Both the position numbers and the translations under genes were made by a program. Below, one piece after another: positions 5,341 to 18,185 of a stretch of DNA of 64,000 bases. The DNA lies in sequence record PZ242158.1. One strand, given 5' to 3'. How positions within the stretch are numbered: position 1 is the stretch's first letter; each line of letters starts with the position of its first letter. The notes below the pieces were generated by a model, which had not been told where the DNA came from, searched no databases, and saw only the letters and a list, made by a program, of their open reading frames with translations. Source of the stretch: a phage.

Positions 5341-5540
5341 CAGCTCTCCAAGTACTCGATCTGTTTTTCGTTTCAAAGATTGAATTTTCTGAAAATTTTT
5401 CTCGATAAATTTCTCAGTACTCGATCTGTTTTTCGTTTTCTGAATCGGATTTTCTGGAAATCGTTCCAGCTCTCGACCTGAAATTTTTGGGGACGAAATC
5501 GATTTTTCGTTTTCAGAAATGGATTTTTAAAATTTCTATA
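5341..5540. repeat. imperfect tandem repeat array (three units of about 52-74 bp sharing CAG(C/T)(A/T)CTCGA(T/C)CTG..TTTTTCGTTT)
   Basis: AGTACTCGATCTGTTTTTCGTTT present at 5351 and 5416; related unit at 5467. Confidence 0.6.
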
Positions 5541-6976: not shown

Positions 6977-6982
6977 AAATCA

Positions 6983-7010
6983 TTGACACGCTGCAAAATT
7001 TAAGTAAACT
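6983..7010 (+). promoter_or_regulatory. sigma70-like promoter (TTGACA-16-TAAACT) followed by 5'UTR hairpin GGCGGGAATGTTTCCCGCC
   Basis: Promoter plus perfect stem-loop at about 7021-7039. Confidence 0.45.
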
Positions 7011-7058
7011 AGACACAAAAGGCGGGAATGTTTCCCGCCAACACAAAGGAAAAAGATC

Positions 7059-7463
7059 ATGAATAAGAACGTACGCCGCATCATGAATGAACTGGCAAAC
7101 GATGAAAAAATTATTGACATGCATTTGATCAACATTTGCCGCCGTTGTGTAACATATAACAACCGCGCCGCAAAAGCGCGTGAGATGAACGCAAAAGGCA
7201 CCTTAAAGCCATTCCAGGTGGTGGTAAAGGCCATTAAAGATGTAACTAATACGGCAAACCAGGTACAGGGGAGCACCAACGAGAGTACCAATATTGATCC
7301 GGCTTACATCATGAAACGGATCCGGACCTGCAAGAACAAAGAGCAAGTGTATAATGTCATAGACTGGTTGGATTCTATGGGCGATGTGGTGTACAATAGA
7401 TTCTCTGCAGCTATTGAGATCCAGCTTGACAGGTTAGACGGTAAAGTACTTAAAACTTACTAA
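7059..7463 (+). CDS. hypothetical protein
   Basis: ORF 134 aa with upstream promoter and hairpin. Confidence 0.5.
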   Translation: MNKNVRRIMNELANDEKIIDMHLINICRRCVTYNNRAAKAREMNAKGTLKPFQVVVKAIKDVTNTANQVQGSTNESTNIDPAYIMKRIRTCKNKEQVYNVIDWLDSMGDVVYNRFSAAIEIQLDRLDGKVLKTY

Positions 7464-7474
7464 ATTTATTTTTA

Positions 7475-7510
7475 GATGGCCTTGACTCCAGGGCCATCAA
7501 TAAAGTAAAT
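7475..7510 (+). promoter_or_regulatory. repeated terminator-hairpin/promoter module (GATGGCCTTGACTCCAGGGCCATC hairpin containing TTGACT -35, 17-bp spacer, GTAAAT -10)
   Basis: Near-identical 45-bp element recurs at 8096 and 11836. Confidence 0.45.
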
Positions 7511-7543
7511 TAATCTCAGCTAAGCGAAAAAGGGGGCTTTAAG

Positions 7544-7663
7544 ATGAGCACTACACGCCAATACACAAAGGTAACTATTATCGCCTGCGTTGTCGGTTAC
7601 ATCCTGGCGCAAATGTTAATGAGCAGCGCTAACAGTTTTGCAAAATTTTTCTTAAATTTTTAA
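7544..7663 (+). CDS. small hydrophobic peptide (39 aa)
   Basis: AAGGGGG RBS; hydrophobic core IIACVVGYILAQML; below ORF-track size cutoff. Confidence 0.3.
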   Translation: MSTTRQYTKVTIIACVVGYILAQMLMSSANSFAKFFLNF

Positions 7664-7691
7664 TTGACAAGCTAACTTAGATTGATATACT
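7664..7691 (+). promoter_or_regulatory. sigma70-like promoter (TTGACA-16-TATACT) with downstream hairpin GGGAAAACTTCCC
   Basis: Same architecture as promoter at 9527. Confidence 0.45.
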
Positions 7692-7742
7692 TAAACACGT
7701 AAACGGGAAAACTTCCCAGAGCACACAAAAGGAGAAAACACC

Positions 7743-8084
7743 ATGACTACTATGACCGCCGCAGAAAAAGCTATTCAGATCGCCGCACTGAAAAAACAGA
7801 TCGCAGACCTTGAGAACAAGATCGATAACTTTGAAATCGACGAGGACAAGTACGACGAAAACTATGATGAATGGTTAGACGAGATCTACGGCGAAATTAT
7901 GATCGGAAACATTTCTTTTCTTCCGTCGCGTATCCTCAAGGAGCTAGATCCTATCGCTTACCGCTGCGGATTTAGCGACTACATCGACAGCCTGGATATT
8001 GAGGACGATGAAGAATACCAGGAATTACAGACAGAGTTAGAAGAAGCAAAAGAAGAGCTTGCAGAACTGGAAGAAAACGAGTAA
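7743..8084 (+). CDS. hypothetical acidic coiled-coil protein
   Basis: ORF 113 aa, Glu/Asp-rich. Confidence 0.5.
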   Translation: MTTMTAAEKAIQIAALKKQIADLENKIDNFEIDEDKYDENYDEWLDEIYGEIMIGNISFLPSRILKELDPIAYRCGFSDYIDSLDIEDDEEYQELQTELEEAKEELAELEENE

Positions 8085-8095
8085 GATTATTTTTA

Positions 8096-8140
8096 GATGG
8101 CCTTGACTCCAGGGCCATCAATAAAGTAAACTTTATACTG
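8096..8140 (+). promoter_or_regulatory. second copy of terminator-hairpin/promoter module
   Basis: GATGGCCTTGACTCCAGGGCCATCAATAAAGTAAA repeated. Confidence 0.45.
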
Positions 8141-8173
8141 TTAACACTGAACTAATGCATAGGAGTTAAAACC

Positions 8174-8419
8174 ATGGCAGCACTAATCACCAAATATTAT
8201 GCCCCTACCAACACCAAAAGCGCCCGTATCATGGTAAAAGGCTTCGGACGTAAAAAGGTGTACACCTGGGATTATGCCTTAGACACGGAAGACAACTACA
8301 CCAACGCGATGACCGATTTTATTAATGATCTGAACACGCGGATCTTGACAAATTATAAAATTACCGATATTGCCTATATAGGGGAAGGCGGGATCTGTTT
8401 TGTCGGTATCGTCAAATAA
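8174..8419 (+). CDS. hypothetical protein
   Basis: ATAGGAGTTAAAACC-ATG start context (identical context at 12773). Confidence 0.5.
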   Translation: MAALITKYYAPTNTKSARIMVKGFGRKKVYTWDYALDTEDNYTNAMTDFINDLNTRILTNYKITDIAYIGEGGICFVGIVK

Positions 8420-8494
8420 GCTGTTTTTTCGGTGGTCCTGGTAGCAGGGCCATCTATAAAGATAGTTTATCAATACAATGAAAGGAGAAAGTAC

Positions 8495-8848
8495 ATGATC
8501 AGCGGGGCAAGTTTTATTATTGGCGCTATTGCTACGGCTTTAATTGTAAACAAGATCCAATCTAAAAACGAAAAAGATAGCAACGCCCTTACAGAATACC
8601 CGTTTTGGGTATTCAACGACAATGAAGACTATATTATCAAGTACAAGAATGAGAAGGGCGACCAGGTAACACCGCGACCGATCCCGGCTTACAAGATGCA
8701 AGAAACACTATACCGCCTAAAGGCTGGAGGCGCAAAAATCGTAGACTTTTGGGGATACGATCACACAGATCAGGAAGTTATAAAGCGCCGTATCCGGGCT
8801 ATTCAGGCCAATATTGAAGTTAGCAAGGGGGGAATATATGAAGATTAA
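8495..8848 (+). CDS. hypothetical protein with N-terminal transmembrane segment
   Basis: AAAGGAGAAAGTAC-ATG; hydrophobic N-terminus. Confidence 0.45.
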   Translation: MISGASFIIGAIATALIVNKIQSKNEKDSNALTEYPFWVFNDNEDYIIKYKNEKGDQVTPRPIPAYKMQETLYRLKAGGAKIVDFWGYDHTDQEVIKRRIRAIQANIEVSKGGIYED

Positions 8849-9035
8849 TTTTGAGAAGATTGTAAAGCGATCTCATGCTTCCGAAGAGCTGCCGGAACGC
8901 CGCCAGCGCAACAATAAACTGAATAAGCCAAAAAGATTTGGGAAGATCTGGCGAAATCATTATGATCGCAAATTACCGGGCCTGCTTTTGGAACGTGAAC
9001 GACAGGCGGAACGATACCGCCACAAAGGCAAATAA
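8838..9035 (+). CDS. hypothetical basic small protein
   Basis: Overlaps upstream stop; Arg/Lys-rich. Confidence 0.35.
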   Translation: MKINFEKIVKRSHASEELPERRQRNNKLNKPKRFGKIWRNHYDRKLPGLLLERERQAERYRHKGK

Positions 9036-9043
9036 CAACCAAC

Positions 9044-9070
9044 GCCCCGCCATTGTGCGGGGCTTTTTAT
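9044..9070 (+). terminator. rho-independent terminator (GCCCCGC-loop-GCGGGGC + T-tract)
   Basis: GC-rich hairpin followed by TTTTTATTT. Confidence 0.6.
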
Positions 9071-9276
9071 TTCTATCCTACGAATAGCGCCCCCGGTTGG
9101 CCCTGTAAGCGCCAAAAAGGCCCCACCTATGCAATCGCCCCCCTTTAACCTGAAAACATCGCTTAGGGCCGTTTTATGGCGTTAAAAATATCATTGACAG
9201 TGATTTTATTTAAAGCTTGACATCTTAAACAGGTTAGCTATACTAACCACATCAAAGAGAGAAAGGAGTAAACGCC

Positions 9277-9537
9277 ATGCGTAAATTAAAAAATTTTGAT
9301 AAAGTTGATGTTGTCCTGAATAATTTTTACTACTGCAACAACAAGGCCATTTGGTGGCGTGATAGTTCCACCGATAAAGTTAAAGCTCGCTTTCTCCAAG
9401 GGCACTGGCAAGGCCGTCCAGTGATTAAAATACTGGGGCAACTGGTAGCGTTTAAAAATTGCCGCCGTGTTGATGACGTTGAAGAGATCTTGAACATTTT
9501 ACGCCACAATAATTTAAAAAATAGTGTTGACAAGTAA
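9277..9537 (+). CDS. hypothetical protein
   Basis: ORF 86 aa. Confidence 0.5.
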   Translation: MRKLKNFDKVDVVLNNFYYCNNKAIWWRDSSTDKVKARFLQGHWQGRPVIKILGQLVAFKNCRRVDDVEEILNILRHNNLKNSVDK

Positions 9538-9554
9538 ATCTCGATAAGTATACT
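9527..9554 (+). promoter_or_regulatory. sigma70-like promoter (TTGACA-16-TATACT) plus 5'UTR hairpin GGCGGGAAAACTTCCCGCC
   Basis: Consensus elements; hairpin at about 9565-9583. Confidence 0.45.
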
Positions 9555-9611
9555 TAAACACACAGGCGGGAAAACTTCCCGCCACTAACAAAGAAAATAG
9601 GAGAAAATATC

Positions 9612-10235
9612 ATGACCACCGTTAACATTACCACAGGTTACAATTTATCTTTCGACGTGCTGACCGACGAACAAAAAGAAAAAGCTATTGAAATGGTCCG
9701 CGAAAGAGAAGAACACAGCGGGGATAATTTTTTTGCAGAAAGTGTAATTGAACACTATAAAGAATATGTCTTTCCAGAGTACGGCCTTGAAGATACCGAA
9801 GTACGTTGGTCCGGCTTTTGGTGTCAAGGCGATGGCGCGTCAATCAGTGCTGAAAACGTGGATTTAGAAAAATTCTTGCGTAAAGTAAAGGCCCTGACCA
9901 AGTTCCGATCAATTCGTCACTTGTTCGGCACAATGCACGATGGCGAGTTATCAGCCAGTGTTGAACGTATCCCGTTTAGCCATTATCATCACGAAAACAC
10001 AATAGGAGGGTGCATCGATACTAATTGGCTAGACCTGACCACCAAGCAAGAGGACAAAGTTGAAGAGCTGGAAGAGCTGATCACCGAGACGGTACGGGAG
10101 CTATCCCGCAAGGTTTACGTAGACCTGGAGGAGGCCTATCTTGAACAGTTTACTACCGAAAACCTGATCGGCCTTATTGAAGCCAATGATTGGCGGTTTG
10201 ATGTGGATGAATATGGGGAGATGAGTTTTTCATAA
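9612..10235 (+). CDS. hypothetical protein
   Basis: ORF 207 aa. Confidence 0.55.
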   Translation: MTTVNITTGYNLSFDVLTDEQKEKAIEMVREREEHSGDNFFAESVIEHYKEYVFPEYGLEDTEVRWSGFWCQGDGASISAENVDLEKFLRKVKALTKFRSIRHLFGTMHDGELSASVERIPFSHYHHENTIGGCIDTNWLDLTTKQEDKVEELEELITETVRELSRKVYVDLEEAYLEQFTTENLIGLIEANDWRFDVDEYGEMSFS

Positions 10236-10325
10236 ATAAAGTGTTGCAATAATCTAAAAACCTGCTATATTAAAAACTCAAGGGGCGAGATGACTTGCCC
10301 CCCACAAAACAAAGAGGAAAACATC

Positions 10326-10706
10326 ATGAAAAACACTACTAAAGCTATTGACACCGTTATGTTTAACCTGGTTACATTCCGTGAAGATATGAAAGATCTT
10401 CCACGTGAAACAGTGTGCGACCATATCGAAAACTATCGCAAACTAATCAAAGAGTTGCCTTTAAAACGTGACCAGTACGCGGCTAACGCTATGCTTAACG
10501 CCATGATCAAAAAGATGATCCAGTGTGATTTAACTCTGGCCTATGATTATGCAGGCGGTCGTTTTGCAGTATACAATCAGCCCGTGCCCGGTATGAGCAC
10601 CACCGAAGAATTGCACGCGTTAAATCTGAAACAAGATGTATGGGATAACATGCCCCGCGTGGTGGTGTGGGCAGAAAGCGGAAAGATTTACGGCGATAAT
10701 TTTTAA
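10326..10706 (+). CDS. hypothetical protein
   Basis: CAAAGAGGAAAACATC-ATG. Confidence 0.5.
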   Translation: MKNTTKAIDTVMFNLVTFREDMKDLPRETVCDHIENYRKLIKELPLKRDQYAANAMLNAMIKKMIQCDLTLAYDYAGGRFAVYNQPVPGMSTTEELHALNLKQDVWDNMPRVVVWAESGKIYGDNF

Positions 10707-10770
10707 TCAGGTAACAGGCGGCATATTTGCCGCCTTATTGTTAAACAGAACTGCAAAAGAGGTACATAGA

Positions 10771-11142
10771 ATGGAATTTATTATTTTGGCTGTAGTAGTT
10801 GCCTTGTTCAACGCCTGGATCGCTGGCAAGATGGGTAGATCCGCTTTTTTATGGTTTATTATATCTATTTTCCTGGGGGTGGTTGCAACTATTGTACTTG
10901 TTATCCTTGCAATTGTTGACAAGGGGAATAATAGAAAGGGTAAAGTATTTTCAGACCTGTACGACGCTCAAACATTTGTCAACGCCTACTACAGCGATCT
11001 TCCAGTCTCCCTACGTTGCAGCCTTGCACAACAGGTTTTCGATGAAGCTAAAACCAGAGATCACGCCCATGAGATTTGTTTAACTGAGGCGGATCGCCTA
11101 TTTGAGAGGAATAGAAAATATGTGGACCAGCCGTTTAAATAA
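10771..11142 (+). CDS. hypothetical membrane protein (two predicted TM helices)
   Basis: Hydrophobic N-terminal half. Confidence 0.45.
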   Translation: MEFIILAVVVALFNAWIAGKMGRSAFLWFIISIFLGVVATIVLVILAIVDKGNNRKGKVFSDLYDAQTFVNAYYSDLPVSLRCSLAQQVFDEAKTRDHAHEICLTEADRLFERNRKYVDQPFK

Positions 11143-11361
11143 TGCCACGTTAATTAACCCCTTTAGTGAAGATTTGAAGCCAGCCGCCTGGCGGGATGGA
11201 TTCAATAACGAAAGCTTTATTTTCAGGCCTGATCTTAAGGAATTTTATAACAATGGATCGAACAACGACAGAGATAATTTTTCTTGTAATGTGCGTGGTG
11301 ATAATACTCCTGGGAGCCATTGCAAACCACGTCACTGCTAACAGGAGGAAAGGGGGAGACG

Positions 11362-11481
11362 ATGACACCCAAGGATAAGCCCCGCACCGATAAGGCGCGC
11401 CGTGTTATGGTATGGCTTGAGATCATCGCCCTTGAAATATTGTTAGGCGTAGGGATGTATTTTATCGCTGTAAGTAATTGA
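11362..11481 (+). CDS. small hydrophobic peptide (39 aa)
   Basis: AGGAGGAAAGGGGGAG RBS; C-terminal TM-like segment; followed by terminator-like hairpin. Confidence 0.3.
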   Translation: MTPKDKPRTDKARRVMVWLEIIALEILLGVGMYFIAVSN

Positions 11482-11622
11482 TAACGGCCCCGATCCCTGG
11501 GGCCTAACTTTTCAAATTTTTTTTCTCCCTGAGTGTTGCAATCCGATCCAGAATATGGATAATAACAATCAACGGGGAGACACTCCCCACCGCATAGACA
11601 AAGTTCCAAAAGGAGAAACAAA

Positions 11623-11823
11623 ATGAGCAACAATATCCGCGTTATTAACTTCAAAAAAGAAGAAAAAATTGCCGTGCTGATTGACGGTCAAGAAATCTTT
11701 AAAGGTGATTATGAAGATCATCAAACGGCGATTAGTATCACTCGCGTGATTGGTTACCATAATTTTTACCCTCAAGGCGCTGAGGCAGCAGTAAAACTAA
11801 TTAAAGAGATTGTAGGCCTGTAA
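11623..11823 (+). CDS. hypothetical small protein
   Basis: AAAAGGAGAAACAAA-ATG. Confidence 0.5.
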   Translation: MSNNIRVINFKKEEKIAVLIDGQEIFKGDYEDHQTAISITRVIGYHNFYPQGAEAAVKLIKEIVGL

Positions 11824-11835
11824 AATTTATTTTTA

Positions 11836-11872
11836 GATGGCCTTGACTCCAGGGCCATCAATAAAGTAAATT
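11836..11872 (+). promoter_or_regulatory. third copy of terminator-hairpin/promoter module
   Basis: GATGGCCTTGACTCCAGGGCCATCAATAAAGTAAAT. Confidence 0.45.
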
Positions 11873-11914
11873 TAAACCCTGTTAAAATAATCAGTGCAAA
11901 AAGGAGTAATGATC

Positions 11915-12214
11915 ATGTTTATCCAGGCTAATAATCTTTATTTCTTTGATGGTCAGATCGTAGACGGCGTGGAGGTGGAAATCACCGGGTGCCCTGGCGG
12001 TCAGGTTATGACTTTTCGGAATAATGCCTTTGATGATTCTCATATCGTTATGAGAATGGAAGTTAGTAAGCTGGATGACAAGAAAACACTCATTGATTAT
12101 TCCGTGAAAGATCATCCAGACTACCACATGATCTATGGTGATTTGTGCATTGTTGACCGTGACAAGGTGGGCGGCATTGTGATCGCTATTGTGAACGATG
12201 TTTTCTCAAACTAA
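11915..12214 (+). CDS. hypothetical protein
   Basis: AAAAGGAGTAATGATC-ATG. Confidence 0.5.
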   Translation: MFIQANNLYFFDGQIVDGVEVEITGCPGGQVMTFRNNAFDDSHIVMRMEVSKLDDKKTLIDYSVKDHPDYHMIYGDLCIVDRDKVGGIVIAIVNDVFSN

Positions 12215-12231
12215 TTTCAGCAGGTGATTTT

Positions 12232-12582
12232 ATGAAAGTAAAACTATATTACCTTAATGAGCTTAACCCCCTTGCCCAGGTCCGCGCCCTGGCTAATACC
12301 TTGATTTGTGAGAAATCTGTATATTGTGTTGAGCTTAACTCCATGCGTGAACGTCTCAAAGGTGGTTACTTTGACATCCATGCTGCAATCAACGGCCTGA
12401 ATATGGAATTTATCCGCTTACGTAACAGCCGCCAGAATCTGGCAAGAATGGAACAAGATCCGGCCCACCTTCGTAAGCTGGTTATTGAAAATCATCTAAT
12501 GTTTAATGCCGATGGTGATTATTACCATTTTCACCGTAAACGCTGGTACCGTAGCGGCAATATAGGAAAGAATGCAAAATAA
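12232..12582 (+). CDS. hypothetical protein
   Basis: ORF 116 aa followed by two hairpins (12586-12651). Confidence 0.5.
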   Translation: MKVKLYYLNELNPLAQVRALANTLICEKSVYCVELNSMRERLKGGYFDIHAAINGLNMEFIRLRNSRQNLARMEQDPAHLRKLVIENHLMFNADGDYYHFHRKRWYRSGNIGKNAK

Positions 12583-13128: not shown

Positions 13129-13362
13129 ATGATGGAACAAATTAAACGCGCCGAGGCTATTAATGGCAACGTGATCTATTTTGTCAGCAAAAACGAAAAA
13201 GGCGTACCCTATGCGGCGGTAATAGTACAGCCTGACGGCGATTATTGGTGTACTGTGTACGGCGCTTATTCTTTTGGGCGTCCAGTGCATGATAAAATTT
13301 TGAAAGTAGCGAACCCTACCGGGAAAAATATCACAGCAGAAAAATTTTTTGAAAATAGTTGA
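13129..13362 (+). CDS. hypothetical small protein
   Basis: AAAGAGAGGCAAATCATC-ATG. Confidence 0.5.
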   Translation: MMEQIKRAEAINGNVIYFVSKNEKGVPYAAVIVQPDGDYWCTVYGAYSFGRPVHDKILKVANPTGKNITAEKFFENS

Positions 13363-13433
13363 CATGACCATATAAGACTGTAGTATATAAATCAAAGGGG
13401 CAAGCCCCACCAACCACAAAGAGGATAAAAATC

Positions 13434-17191: not shown

Positions 17192-17625
17192 TCCCCTCTT
17201 TGTCAAGTGCTGCATGAAAAAATTTACAAGCTGGTATGGTAGCATTTTTGCGGCCTTGTTTACATTCAGGAGTGTATGTATAATCCTTGTTGTGTGGGCG
17301 TTTATACGTCTGGACGGTCAGAAGTCTGCAGGTTAATATCTAATCTATTGGCTGCTAACTATATCCCACACAAATGATAAGAAATATAATTGTTATATGC
17401 GTAAACTGTAACTCATGTTATCAATCCCTGTATGTATCGCCAGTGGTGCGCATAATGGGTATTATGTTAAATTGCCCGTAATGATAACAGTTCTCACAAT
17501 GATAGGTATTCTCATTCATCCACACAAAATAGGTTGCAAATGTTGTGCCACTGTGTGAACGGCCTGGCCTATTAATTTCTCTCACTGCCTCGATATTTGA
17601 GAATTGTTATAAGAATGAGAAGTAT
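17192..17625. repeat. 434-bp direct repeat, copy 1
   Basis: Identical to 17752-18185 by visual comparison. Confidence 0.85.
17256..17284 (+). promoter_or_regulatory. sigma70-like promoter inside repeat copy 1 (TTGTTT-17-TATAAT)
   Basis: Perfect -10 hexamer with 17-bp spacer; no ORF downstream. Confidence 0.4.
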
Positions 17626-17751: not shown

Positions 17752-18185
17752 TCCCCTCTTTGTCAAGTGCTGCATGAAAAAATTTACAAGCTGGTATGGT
17801 AGCATTTTTGCGGCCTTGTTTACATTCAGGAGTGTATGTATAATCCTTGTTGTGTGGGCGTTTATACGTCTGGACGGTCAGAAGTCTGCAGGTTAATATC
17901 TAATCTATTGGCTGCTAACTATATCCCACACAAATGATAAGAAATATAATTGTTATATGCGTAAACTGTAACTCATGTTATCAATCCCTGTATGTATCGC
18001 CAGTGGTGCGCATAATGGGTATTATGTTAAATTGCCCGTAATGATAACAGTTCTCACAATGATAGGTATTCTCATTCATCCACACAAAATAGGTTGCAAA
18101 TGTTGTGCCACTGTGTGAACGGCCTGGCCTATTAATTTCTCTCACTGCCTCGATATTTGAGAATTGTTATAAGAATGAGAAGTAT
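17752..18185. repeat. 434-bp direct repeat, copy 2
   Basis: Identical to copy 1; 126-bp unique spacer between copies. Confidence 0.85.
17816..17844 (+). promoter_or_regulatory. sigma70-like promoter inside repeat copy 2 (TTGTTT-17-TATAAT)
   Basis: Same as copy 1. Confidence 0.4.

Follow-up and report, generated by a model that had tools for sequence, protein, structure and literature searches.

Small genes without a known function crowd the early regions of large lytic phages, and many of them are presumed to serve the takeover of the host or to counter its defences; to our knowledge, both the expression and the exchange of these genes are poorly understood outside T4 and T7. The rV5-like phages, for their part, are in wide use as therapeutic and biocontrol candidates. 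In T4-like phages, promoter-early stem-loop (PeSL) cassettes have been described, in which the intergenic region begins with the stop codon of the upstream gene, located in an AT-rich tract, and carries sigma-70 boxes and a stem-loop with G-T pairs that possibly lies over the –35 box, followed by the Shine-Dalgarno sequence and the ATG of a small ORFan; these cassettes occupy a variable region and recombination takes place between their copies (Arbiol et al., 2010, PMC2839356; Comeau et al., 2014, PMC4122927). Descriptions of PeSLs are confined to T4-like phages, and the literature yielded no report of them in rV5-like phages. Here, we describe a module of about 50 nucleotides (nt) that is present in four copies, between positions 7463 and 11873, in a window of 64,000 nt from the phage sequence record PZ242158.1 (by window we mean the whole stretch of DNA that was analysed, read 5′ to 3′ on one strand, +); no usable earlier description of it was found in the literature. 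Judged by its sequence features, the PeSL cassette appears to be its closest known kind, and we favour, with moderate confidence, the interpretation of a PeSL-type composite that would join an early promoter, an RNA hairpin acting in processing and stability, and a recombining repeat.

A second term of comparison is offered by the RNase III signals of the early region of T7. We take the positions of five of them (R0.3, R0.5, R1, R1.1 and R1.3) to be those of Dunn and Studier (1983); RNase III sites are not among the features listed in the T7 RefSeq record, and the positions adopted here were checked only for their placement in an intergenic gap and in the internal loop of the folded RNA. When folded, the five sites gave an upper stem of 9–13 base pairs (bp) including G-U pairs, a loop of 3–5 nt, an asymmetric internal loop and an AU-rich lower stem. 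In E. coli, the substrates of RNase III typically comprise two helical turns, and an internal loop restricts the cutting to one bond, leaving a 3′ hairpin that is protective against exonucleases (Pertzev and Nicholson, PMC1540722). The criteria described for this enzyme also include a UA/UG distal box and the exclusion of a G-C pair from position 2 of the proximal box.

The window belongs to an rV5-like Vequintavirus (Vequintavirinae) and shares 99.5% identity with Escherichia phage rV5_ev156; the region is also matched, at 90–97% identity, by more than 100 other Vequintavirus genomes, and the positions of the module are stable across these relatives. The repetition of the module is confirmed: the + strand has exact matches to the 24-nt core GATGGCCTTGACTCCAGGGCCATC at 7475, 8096 and 11836, against 0 expected (100 shuffles), and in the alignment the identity of the three copies extends over 44 nt (7466–7509, 8087–8130 and 11827–11870). 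A first-pass annotation of the sequence had given the same three positions, which correspond to the starts of the hairpin; the repeat it quoted is real, but it is a 42-mer that begins 6 nt earlier (7469, 8090 and 11830), and its count of three left out a diverged fourth copy at 8416–8470, which is 68% identical, has the same fold and was recovered by a repeat search and a covariance model. When applied to the window and to about 128 of the 136 kb of the nearest complete genome, the covariance model gave no copies beyond the following four.

7463–7511, + strand: copy 1, two-tier hairpin and exact repeat (–22.7 kcal/mol, z –6.7; model score 85 bits)
7463–7472/7502–7511, + strand: lower stem of copy 1
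7475–7484/7489–7498, + strand: upper stem of copy 1, with loop ACTC
8083–8133, + strand: copy 2, same hairpin as copy 1, after the gene at 7743–8084 (–21.1 kcal/mol, z –5.0)
8416–8470, + strand: copy 4, hairpin only, with loop GTAG (–28.2 kcal/mol, z –7.4; 76 bits)
11823–11873, + strand: copy 3, same hairpin as copy 1, after the gene at 11623–11823 (–23.6 kcal/mol, z –6.0)

All four copies are on the coding strand, and in each of them the base of the lower stem holds a TAA, whose position varies by no more than 1 nt and after which comes a T-rich tract. The module gave no blastn match in 5,426 E. coli genomes and is thus not derived from the host or from a prophage. Rfam at its gathering thresholds found tRNAs alone in the window and nothing at the module, whose strings are also absent from the table of 33 promoters and 20 terminators of the rV5 genome paper (PMC3606486). 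Scans of IMG/VR and of metagenomes added only a handful of rV5-like contigs, and the module was seen in no distant lineage.

As RNA, each copy folds into a lower stem, a 2/3-nt internal loop, a 10-bp upper stem and a tetraloop. The upper stem, GAUGGCCUUG/CAGGGCCAUC, includes one U-G pair; the GATGGCC/GGCCATC hairpin of the first-pass annotation is a true 7-bp part of it, and what had escaped notice is the full 10-bp extent of this stem and the entire lower one. The latter is AU-rich, being formed by the 5′ T-rich tract paired with a 3′ A-rich tract, and measures 10 bp, or 13 bp in copy 4, whose 10-bp upper stem has more G-U pairs than those of copies 1–3. On the + strand the folding energies range from –21 to –28 kcal/mol (z –5 to –7.4), whereas the opposite strand folds far worse (for copy 4, –9.2 kcal/mol on the – strand versus –28.2 on the +).

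Copies 4 and 1 differ at 10 of the 40 stem positions and yet all 20 pairs are kept, an outcome with a chance of 5.5e-5 in simulation; on the – strand of copy 4, just 15 of the 20 pairs would form. The conservation of the hairpin was also followed in a set of 82 coding-strand copies from 22 sources, in which 98.6% of the pair cells are standard pairs, as compared to at most 55% in slid registers, and four lower-stem pairs have changed on both sides. The covariation score of this alignment, which had been fitted to the model, is 0.204 versus 0.123 in shuffles and was exceeded by 0 of 500. At the site of copy 4 (site 4), the divergence among relatives is close to the local background (0.096 vs. 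0.088 mismatches per site) and 99% of the pairing remains, a combination that reads as selection on the structure alone. A copy that appears to have no promoter and is nevertheless kept in its structure shows, at this level of comparison, that the stem-loop would have an RNA-level job of its own.

The changes in the upper stem occurred nearly all via G-U pairs, which fits a single strand of + sense and does not fit a DNA palindrome. This bears on the idea that GATGGCC-N10-GGCCATC is a DNA operator, on which a dimeric regulator of the phage or of the host would cover the –35 and turn the early promoters off. A perfect 7-bp inverted repeat over the –35 of three promoters of one temporal class would suit such a regulator, but in copy 4 the pairing is kept only via G-U-type changes, which break the symmetry of the DNA (half-sites GGTGGTC and GATGGCC), and no promoter is there to be regulated. 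Moreover, an operator has no need of the two-sided changes found in the conserved lower stem, and the strand asymmetry points to a single-stranded fold. The palindromic operator was hence rejected, and we regard it as highly improbable.

In the PeSL-type composite that we favour, copies 1–3 would act, as DNA, as early promoters for the host RNA polymerase, with an UP-like AT-rich tract followed by TTGAC(T/A)-18-TAAA(T/C)T, and each would drive the small gene directly downstream. The putative elements, together with a promoter predicted upstream of copy 1, are as follows.

6983–7010, + strand: upstream promoter TTGACA-16-TAAACT, from the scan (10/12 matches) and the intergenic layout
7482–7511, + strand: putative sigma-70 promoter of copy 1, –35 TTGACT at 7482–7487, 18-nt spacer, –10 TAAATT at 7506–7511
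8103–8108 and 8127–8132, + strand: –35 and –10 (TAAACT) of the putative promoter of copy 2; the gene at 8174–8419 is next
11843–11848 and 11867–11872, + strand: –35 and –10 (TAAATT) of the putative promoter of copy 3; the gene at 11915–12214 is next

The promoter scan picks up all three exact copies as TTGACT-18-TAAATT/TAAACT, with 9/12 matches. The pair proposed earlier, TTGACT at 17 nt from GTAAAT, was right in its –35 and one base off in its –10: GTAAAT has a T where the near-invariant A is needed, and the usable TAAATT or TAAACT is shifted by one base downstream, which gives an 18-nt spacer. The more general proposal that the module ends one gene and precedes the next with a plausible promoter is borne out by several features. 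The hexamers are conserved, and at sites 1–3 TTGAC is kept in 59 of the 60 copies of the relatives, its A and C being unpaired loop bases, whereas loop bases 3–4 vary freely, with perfect-consensus TTGACA being common. In addition, modules 1–3 are conserved 2–7 times more than the adjacent intergenic DNA, an AT-rich tract precedes the promoter (7464–7474 in copy 1), and the Shine-Dalgarno sequence and ATG lie 26–37 nt past the predicted start.

These observations can be set against a reading in which only the RNA hairpin matters, so that the promoter match would be incidental, all four copies would be processing or stability elements and expression of the downstream genes would depend on promoters further upstream. 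Copy 4, which retains the hairpin without any –35, is in agreement with it, as are the pairing that constrains the –10 bases anyway and a match of just 9/12 with an 18-nt spacer, in a region that has 31 promoter-like hits against 20.8 expected. However, it leaves unexplained why TTGAC is maintained despite its unpaired A and C when the next two loop bases are free, and why the first T of the –35 (T27) is always kept at sites 1–3, where it forms only a weaker U-G pair, though C-G is tolerated at site 4; the upstream AT-rich tract and the spacing to the Shine-Dalgarno sequence and ATG also fit a promoter. We consider the hairpin-only reading unlikely. A composite of hairpin and sigma-70 promoter appears plausible for copies 1–3, the support for the promoter being good circumstantial evidence from which we infer promoter activity in these three copies.

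The first-pass annotation had interpreted the hairpin as a terminator whose formation would occlude the –35, coupling termination to re-initiation. In this reading, the hairpin would be the intrinsic terminator of the upstream gene and would embed the promoter of the next one. The hairpin is in fact GC-rich, stable and placed directly after stop codons, as intrinsic (Rho-independent) terminators are; the authors of the PeSL studies assign to their stem-loops a terminator or attenuator role, one of them having cut reporter expression as much as rrnB T1; and a polymerase paused at the completion of the hairpin would cover the –10 and the start region. However, on neither strand is there a T-run 3′ of the upper or of the full stem. 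The upper stem is flanked on its 3′ side by AAUAAAGU, the sequences that follow the full stem in the copies are AAUCUCAG, UUAUACUG, UAAACCCU and UUAUCAAU, and the T-run sits instead on the 5′ side of the hairpin; unlike intrinsic terminators, moreover, one copy lies within an operon. The terminator scan of the region does not list the module, and the sole canonical intrinsic terminator nearby is another element.

9044–9072, + strand: canonical intrinsic terminator, hairpin 9044–9063 (GCCCCGC..GCGGGGC) followed by TTTTTATTT, from the terminator scan

This terminator is annotated as such also in phage EdH4 and is likely the 3′ end of the transcripts that would pass copies 1, 2 and 4. Copy 4, which has CCTGGT in place of the –35, is located in the middle of an operon, between the genes at 8174–8419 and 8495–8848, and the scan predicted no promoter between it and the terminator at 9044–9063; the polymerase must therefore read through to the genes downstream, and efficient termination at copy 4 would silence the genes at 8495–9035. 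As for the occlusion, a terminator hairpin forms in the RNA whereas the –35 of a promoter is a DNA element, and the hairpin thus cannot mask it. We know of no mechanism that couples intrinsic termination to re-initiation, and the coupling, which confuses RNA with DNA, has no basis. By its sequence features the module is not a canonical terminator, although a partial attenuation of read-through at the hairpin would be possible by analogy with the PeSLs, and we assign little probability to termination coupled to re-initiation. A copy such as copy 4, without a promoter but conserved in its structure, puts in question the default label of terminator that genome annotations give to such hairpins.

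By analogy with characterized hairpins, an element of RNA processing or stability is the most likely role of the hairpin. In the composite reading, all four copies would fold, in RNA made from upstream promoters, into the two-tier hairpin at the 3′ end of the preceding gene; the transcript of the gene at 7059–7463, for instance, would enter and include hairpin 1 if started at the promoter predicted at 6983–7010. The hairpin would not be an efficient intrinsic terminator and would act after transcription, in processing and stability. The two stems are stacked across the small internal loop and amount to about two helical turns of double-stranded RNA (10 + 10 bp in copies 1–3 and 13 + 10 bp in copy 4), and the internal loop is asymmetric (2/3 nt) in all four copies, in accordance with the plan of the five folded T7 sites. 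With the box positions mapped by analogy with R1.1 only, the second and third pairs from the loop are U-A and U-G in copies 1–3, as in R1.1, and U-A and C-G in copy 4, and the pair equivalent to position 2 of the proximal box is A-U or G-U.

The T7 signals, like the module, are intergenic hairpins of the coding strand, carried by overlapping early transcripts that are made by the host polymerase. In both, the upper stem is of about 10 bp and includes G-U pairs, the loop is small, the internal loop is asymmetric and the lower stem is AU-rich, for a total of about two helical turns; according to the T7 annotation, promoters adjoin several of the T7 signals. They differ from the module in that there is no sequence homology between the two, and the module has a smaller internal loop (2/3 nt) and a longer lower stem. 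From the correspondence of the plan, we infer cleavage by RNase III and a stabilizing role: one cleavage within the internal loop would give an upstream mRNA whose end is capped by the upper hairpin, which would protect it.

The role of the module in recombination, which the first-pass annotation had missed, is suggested by an indel that has the module as its boundary.

7510–8130, + strand: cassette of 621 bp between copies 1 and 2, with the genes at 7544–7663 and 7743–8084 and its own promoter at 7664–7691

Exactly these 621 bp are absent from ECP32, from ime and from one IMG/VR contig. What remains in each is one hybrid module, inside which the blast alignment blocks overlap by 47–59 nt; the absence is supported by the annotation of ECP32 and ime and by the hybrid flanks. 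The flanks of ECP32 are closest to the cassette-bearing ECO111 5-P and B9-1 (0.5–0.6% upstream), and those of ime to the cassette-bearing EdH4 and Mangalyan (0.2%). ECP32 and ime diverge from each other by 6.1%, so that the cassette-less genomes do not form a single clade and represent at least two genetic backgrounds; it follows, given nearest relatives that carry the cassette at 0.2–0.5% divergence, that the event recurred or was moved by recombination at the module. Furthermore, sites 1 and 2 of the same genome share their rare loop variants in 12 of 17 cases versus 6.9 expected (p = 0.005). We propose that the near-identical direct repeats would recombine, removing or adding the genes between them and homogenizing neighbouring copies.

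The near-identity of the copies, the module-bounded indel and the concordant variants in neighbouring copies could also be produced by a repeat without a regulatory role that is selfish or serves recombination only, for instance a miniature mobile element or a homing target. Such an element is, however, hard to reconcile with only four copies that lie in one 4.4-kb stretch and share their orientation and their distance from stop codons, with absence from the 5,426 E. coli genomes and with positions that are stable in more than 100 relatives; terminal repeats other than the hairpin are absent, as are target-site duplications, and breakpoints show no enrichment at the modules. We hold this explanation to be very unlikely. 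The idea that the modules are general hot spots of recombination was also dropped: in the relatedness-switch scan, the strongest peaks are at about 7210, 9095 and 9275 and not at the modules. Several other indels exist among the relatives in the region, none of them module-bounded.

Some of these differences may be recorded here. In rV5_ev146 (LR699804), the gene at 7059–7463 and module 1 are missing (7053–7555) and the sequence is divergent after 8985; this deletion was considered as a module-bounded event and discarded, the junction not being at the module. The gene at 12232–12582 (116 amino acids) is absent from V18, Mangalyan, SYGMH1, a gut metagenome contig and an IMG/VR contig, through an indel over 12229–12571 that is not module-bounded. 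Finally, the more distant IMGVR_UViG_3300010279_000001 (82–87%) has a 540-bp insertion near 9197, in the non-coding stretch past the terminator at 9044, and its module at site 1 has a 5-nt loop (TTGATAACC) and a different downstream sequence.

When compared to the definition of the PeSL, the module appears to have every feature that can be read at the level of sequence. All four copies begin, in the intergenic region, at the upstream stop codon within an AT-rich tract; copies 1–3 have sigma-70-like boxes at promoter spacing; a stable stem-loop with G-U pairs overlaps the –35, as in a subclass named in PMC2839356; the Shine-Dalgarno sequence and the start codon of a small gene, an ORFan in the PeSLs, are at the 3′ end; and copies are clustered in a variable early region in which the 621-bp cassette is a motif-bounded indel between close relatives, just as inter-copy recombination deletes or inserts the genes between PeSLs. 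Copy 4, without a –35, would be a “degraded” PeSL in the sense of PMC4122927. The module departs from the PeSLs in its host phage, since the window is from an rV5-like phage of the Vequintavirinae and lies outside the T4-like myovirus range, a restriction that we attribute to how the PeSLs were first described and not to the mechanism. It differs, in addition, in being a sequence family of only four copies, with weaker hexamers (18-nt spacer, TAAATT), no T-run after the stem and the whole promoter within a long hairpin of two tiers, in the lower of which the AT-rich tract is paired with the –10 region. One of the copies consists of the hairpin only and is yet under apparent structural selection. 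Promoter activity, terminator or attenuator activity and the formation of mini-circles belong to the description of the PeSLs.

A bolder extension of the composite would see three overlapping codes in one 50-nt segment, namely a promoter, a T7-style RNase III site for the upstream message and a repeat that shuffles small early genes, with the stop codon allowing translation to gate the processing. The UP-like tract and the –10 region would be the two arms of the lower stem, and a ribosome terminating at the stop codon, at the base of this stem, would open it and could in this way gate processing by translation. We consider this extension rather doubtful. If true, PeSL-type cassettes would extend beyond the T4-like phages, with stem-loops having a processing instead of a terminator role. 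Under the composite itself, the rV5-like phages would arrange their small early genes as recombining promoter-plus-hairpin cassettes, the idea of the PeSL would reach a second phage subfamily and some differences in gene content between near-identical isolates would find an explanation.

A number of points weigh against the composite that we favour. The covariation signal comes mostly from one paralog comparison, that is, from few independent events, and within the orthologs of site 4 alone it is not significant (50/500 shuffles). The promoter is sub-consensus (9/12, with an 18-nt spacer) as compared to the other early promoters of the region, which reach 10–11/12 with 16-nt spacers, and its –10 bases double as bases of the lower stem, so that the conservation of the –10 cannot separate the role of promoter from that of pairing; no usable Vequintavirus transcriptome was found in the literature. 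As regards processing, the upper stem is of 10 bp while the minimal R1.1 substrate needed at least 11 bp from cut to loop, the assignment of the boxes follows R1.1 by analogy only, and the PeSL stem-loop mentioned above was reported by its authors to terminate as well as rrnB T1. Finally, the modules show no enrichment of mosaic breakpoints between genomes (percentiles 21–89), and the evidence for recombination thus rests on one indel and on the loop concordance.

The setting of the module is a long run of small + strand genes, all co-oriented, which is part of a single transcription unit dependent on the host RNA polymerase (rV5 genome paper, PMC3606486). The genes that flank the copies are the following.

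7059–7463, + strand: gene upstream of copy 1, its stop codon adjoining the base of the hairpin
7544–7663, + strand: gene downstream of copy 1, inside the 621-bp cassette
7743–8084, + strand: gene upstream of copy 2, inside the 621-bp cassette
8174–8419, + strand: gene between copies 2 and 4
8495–8848, + strand: gene downstream of copy 4
11623–11823, + strand: gene upstream of copy 3
11915–12214, + strand: gene downstream of copy 3

All seven flanking proteins fall into PHROGs of unknown function, including the 113-amino-acid product of the gene at 7743–8084, which is strongly acidic, with many D and E residues and repeated E-rich runs at its C-terminus.

A second class of cassettes is found in the same region, at 6977–7058, 7664–7742, 9527–9611, 10236–10325, 11536–11622 and 13359–13433. 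In this class, the promoter is near-consensus (TTGACA/TTGCAA-16-TATACT and similar), a GC-rich hairpin (GGCGGGAA..TTCCCGCC, GGGGCAAGCCCC and others) lies about 10 nt past it, at the 5′ end of the would-be transcript, and a Shine-Dalgarno sequence with a small ORF closes the cassette. The EdH4 record labels some of these hairpins as terminators despite their having no T-run on the + strand. The whole region looks, from its sequence, cassette-built.

Other records and repeats were observed in passing. Seventeen “Campylobacter phage” records (MG0656xx), with Campylobacter as host, are 90–95% identical to the E. coli rV5-like region, and this host label looks doubtful. A direct repeat of 300 nt, 100% identical, occupies 17192–17491 and 17752–18051, its copies being 560 nt apart, and three to four imperfect direct repeats of 47–51 nt, with a spacing of 65–74 nt, are present at 5342–5527, where no gene is annotated in the relatives, which show weak cross-matches to it. 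The 28-nt repeat GGTCAGTAACTGTCCGTGATACGGACAC occurs three times within 92 nt (59629–59720); about 2.4 kb further downstream, at 62085–62894, six tRNA genes form a cluster.

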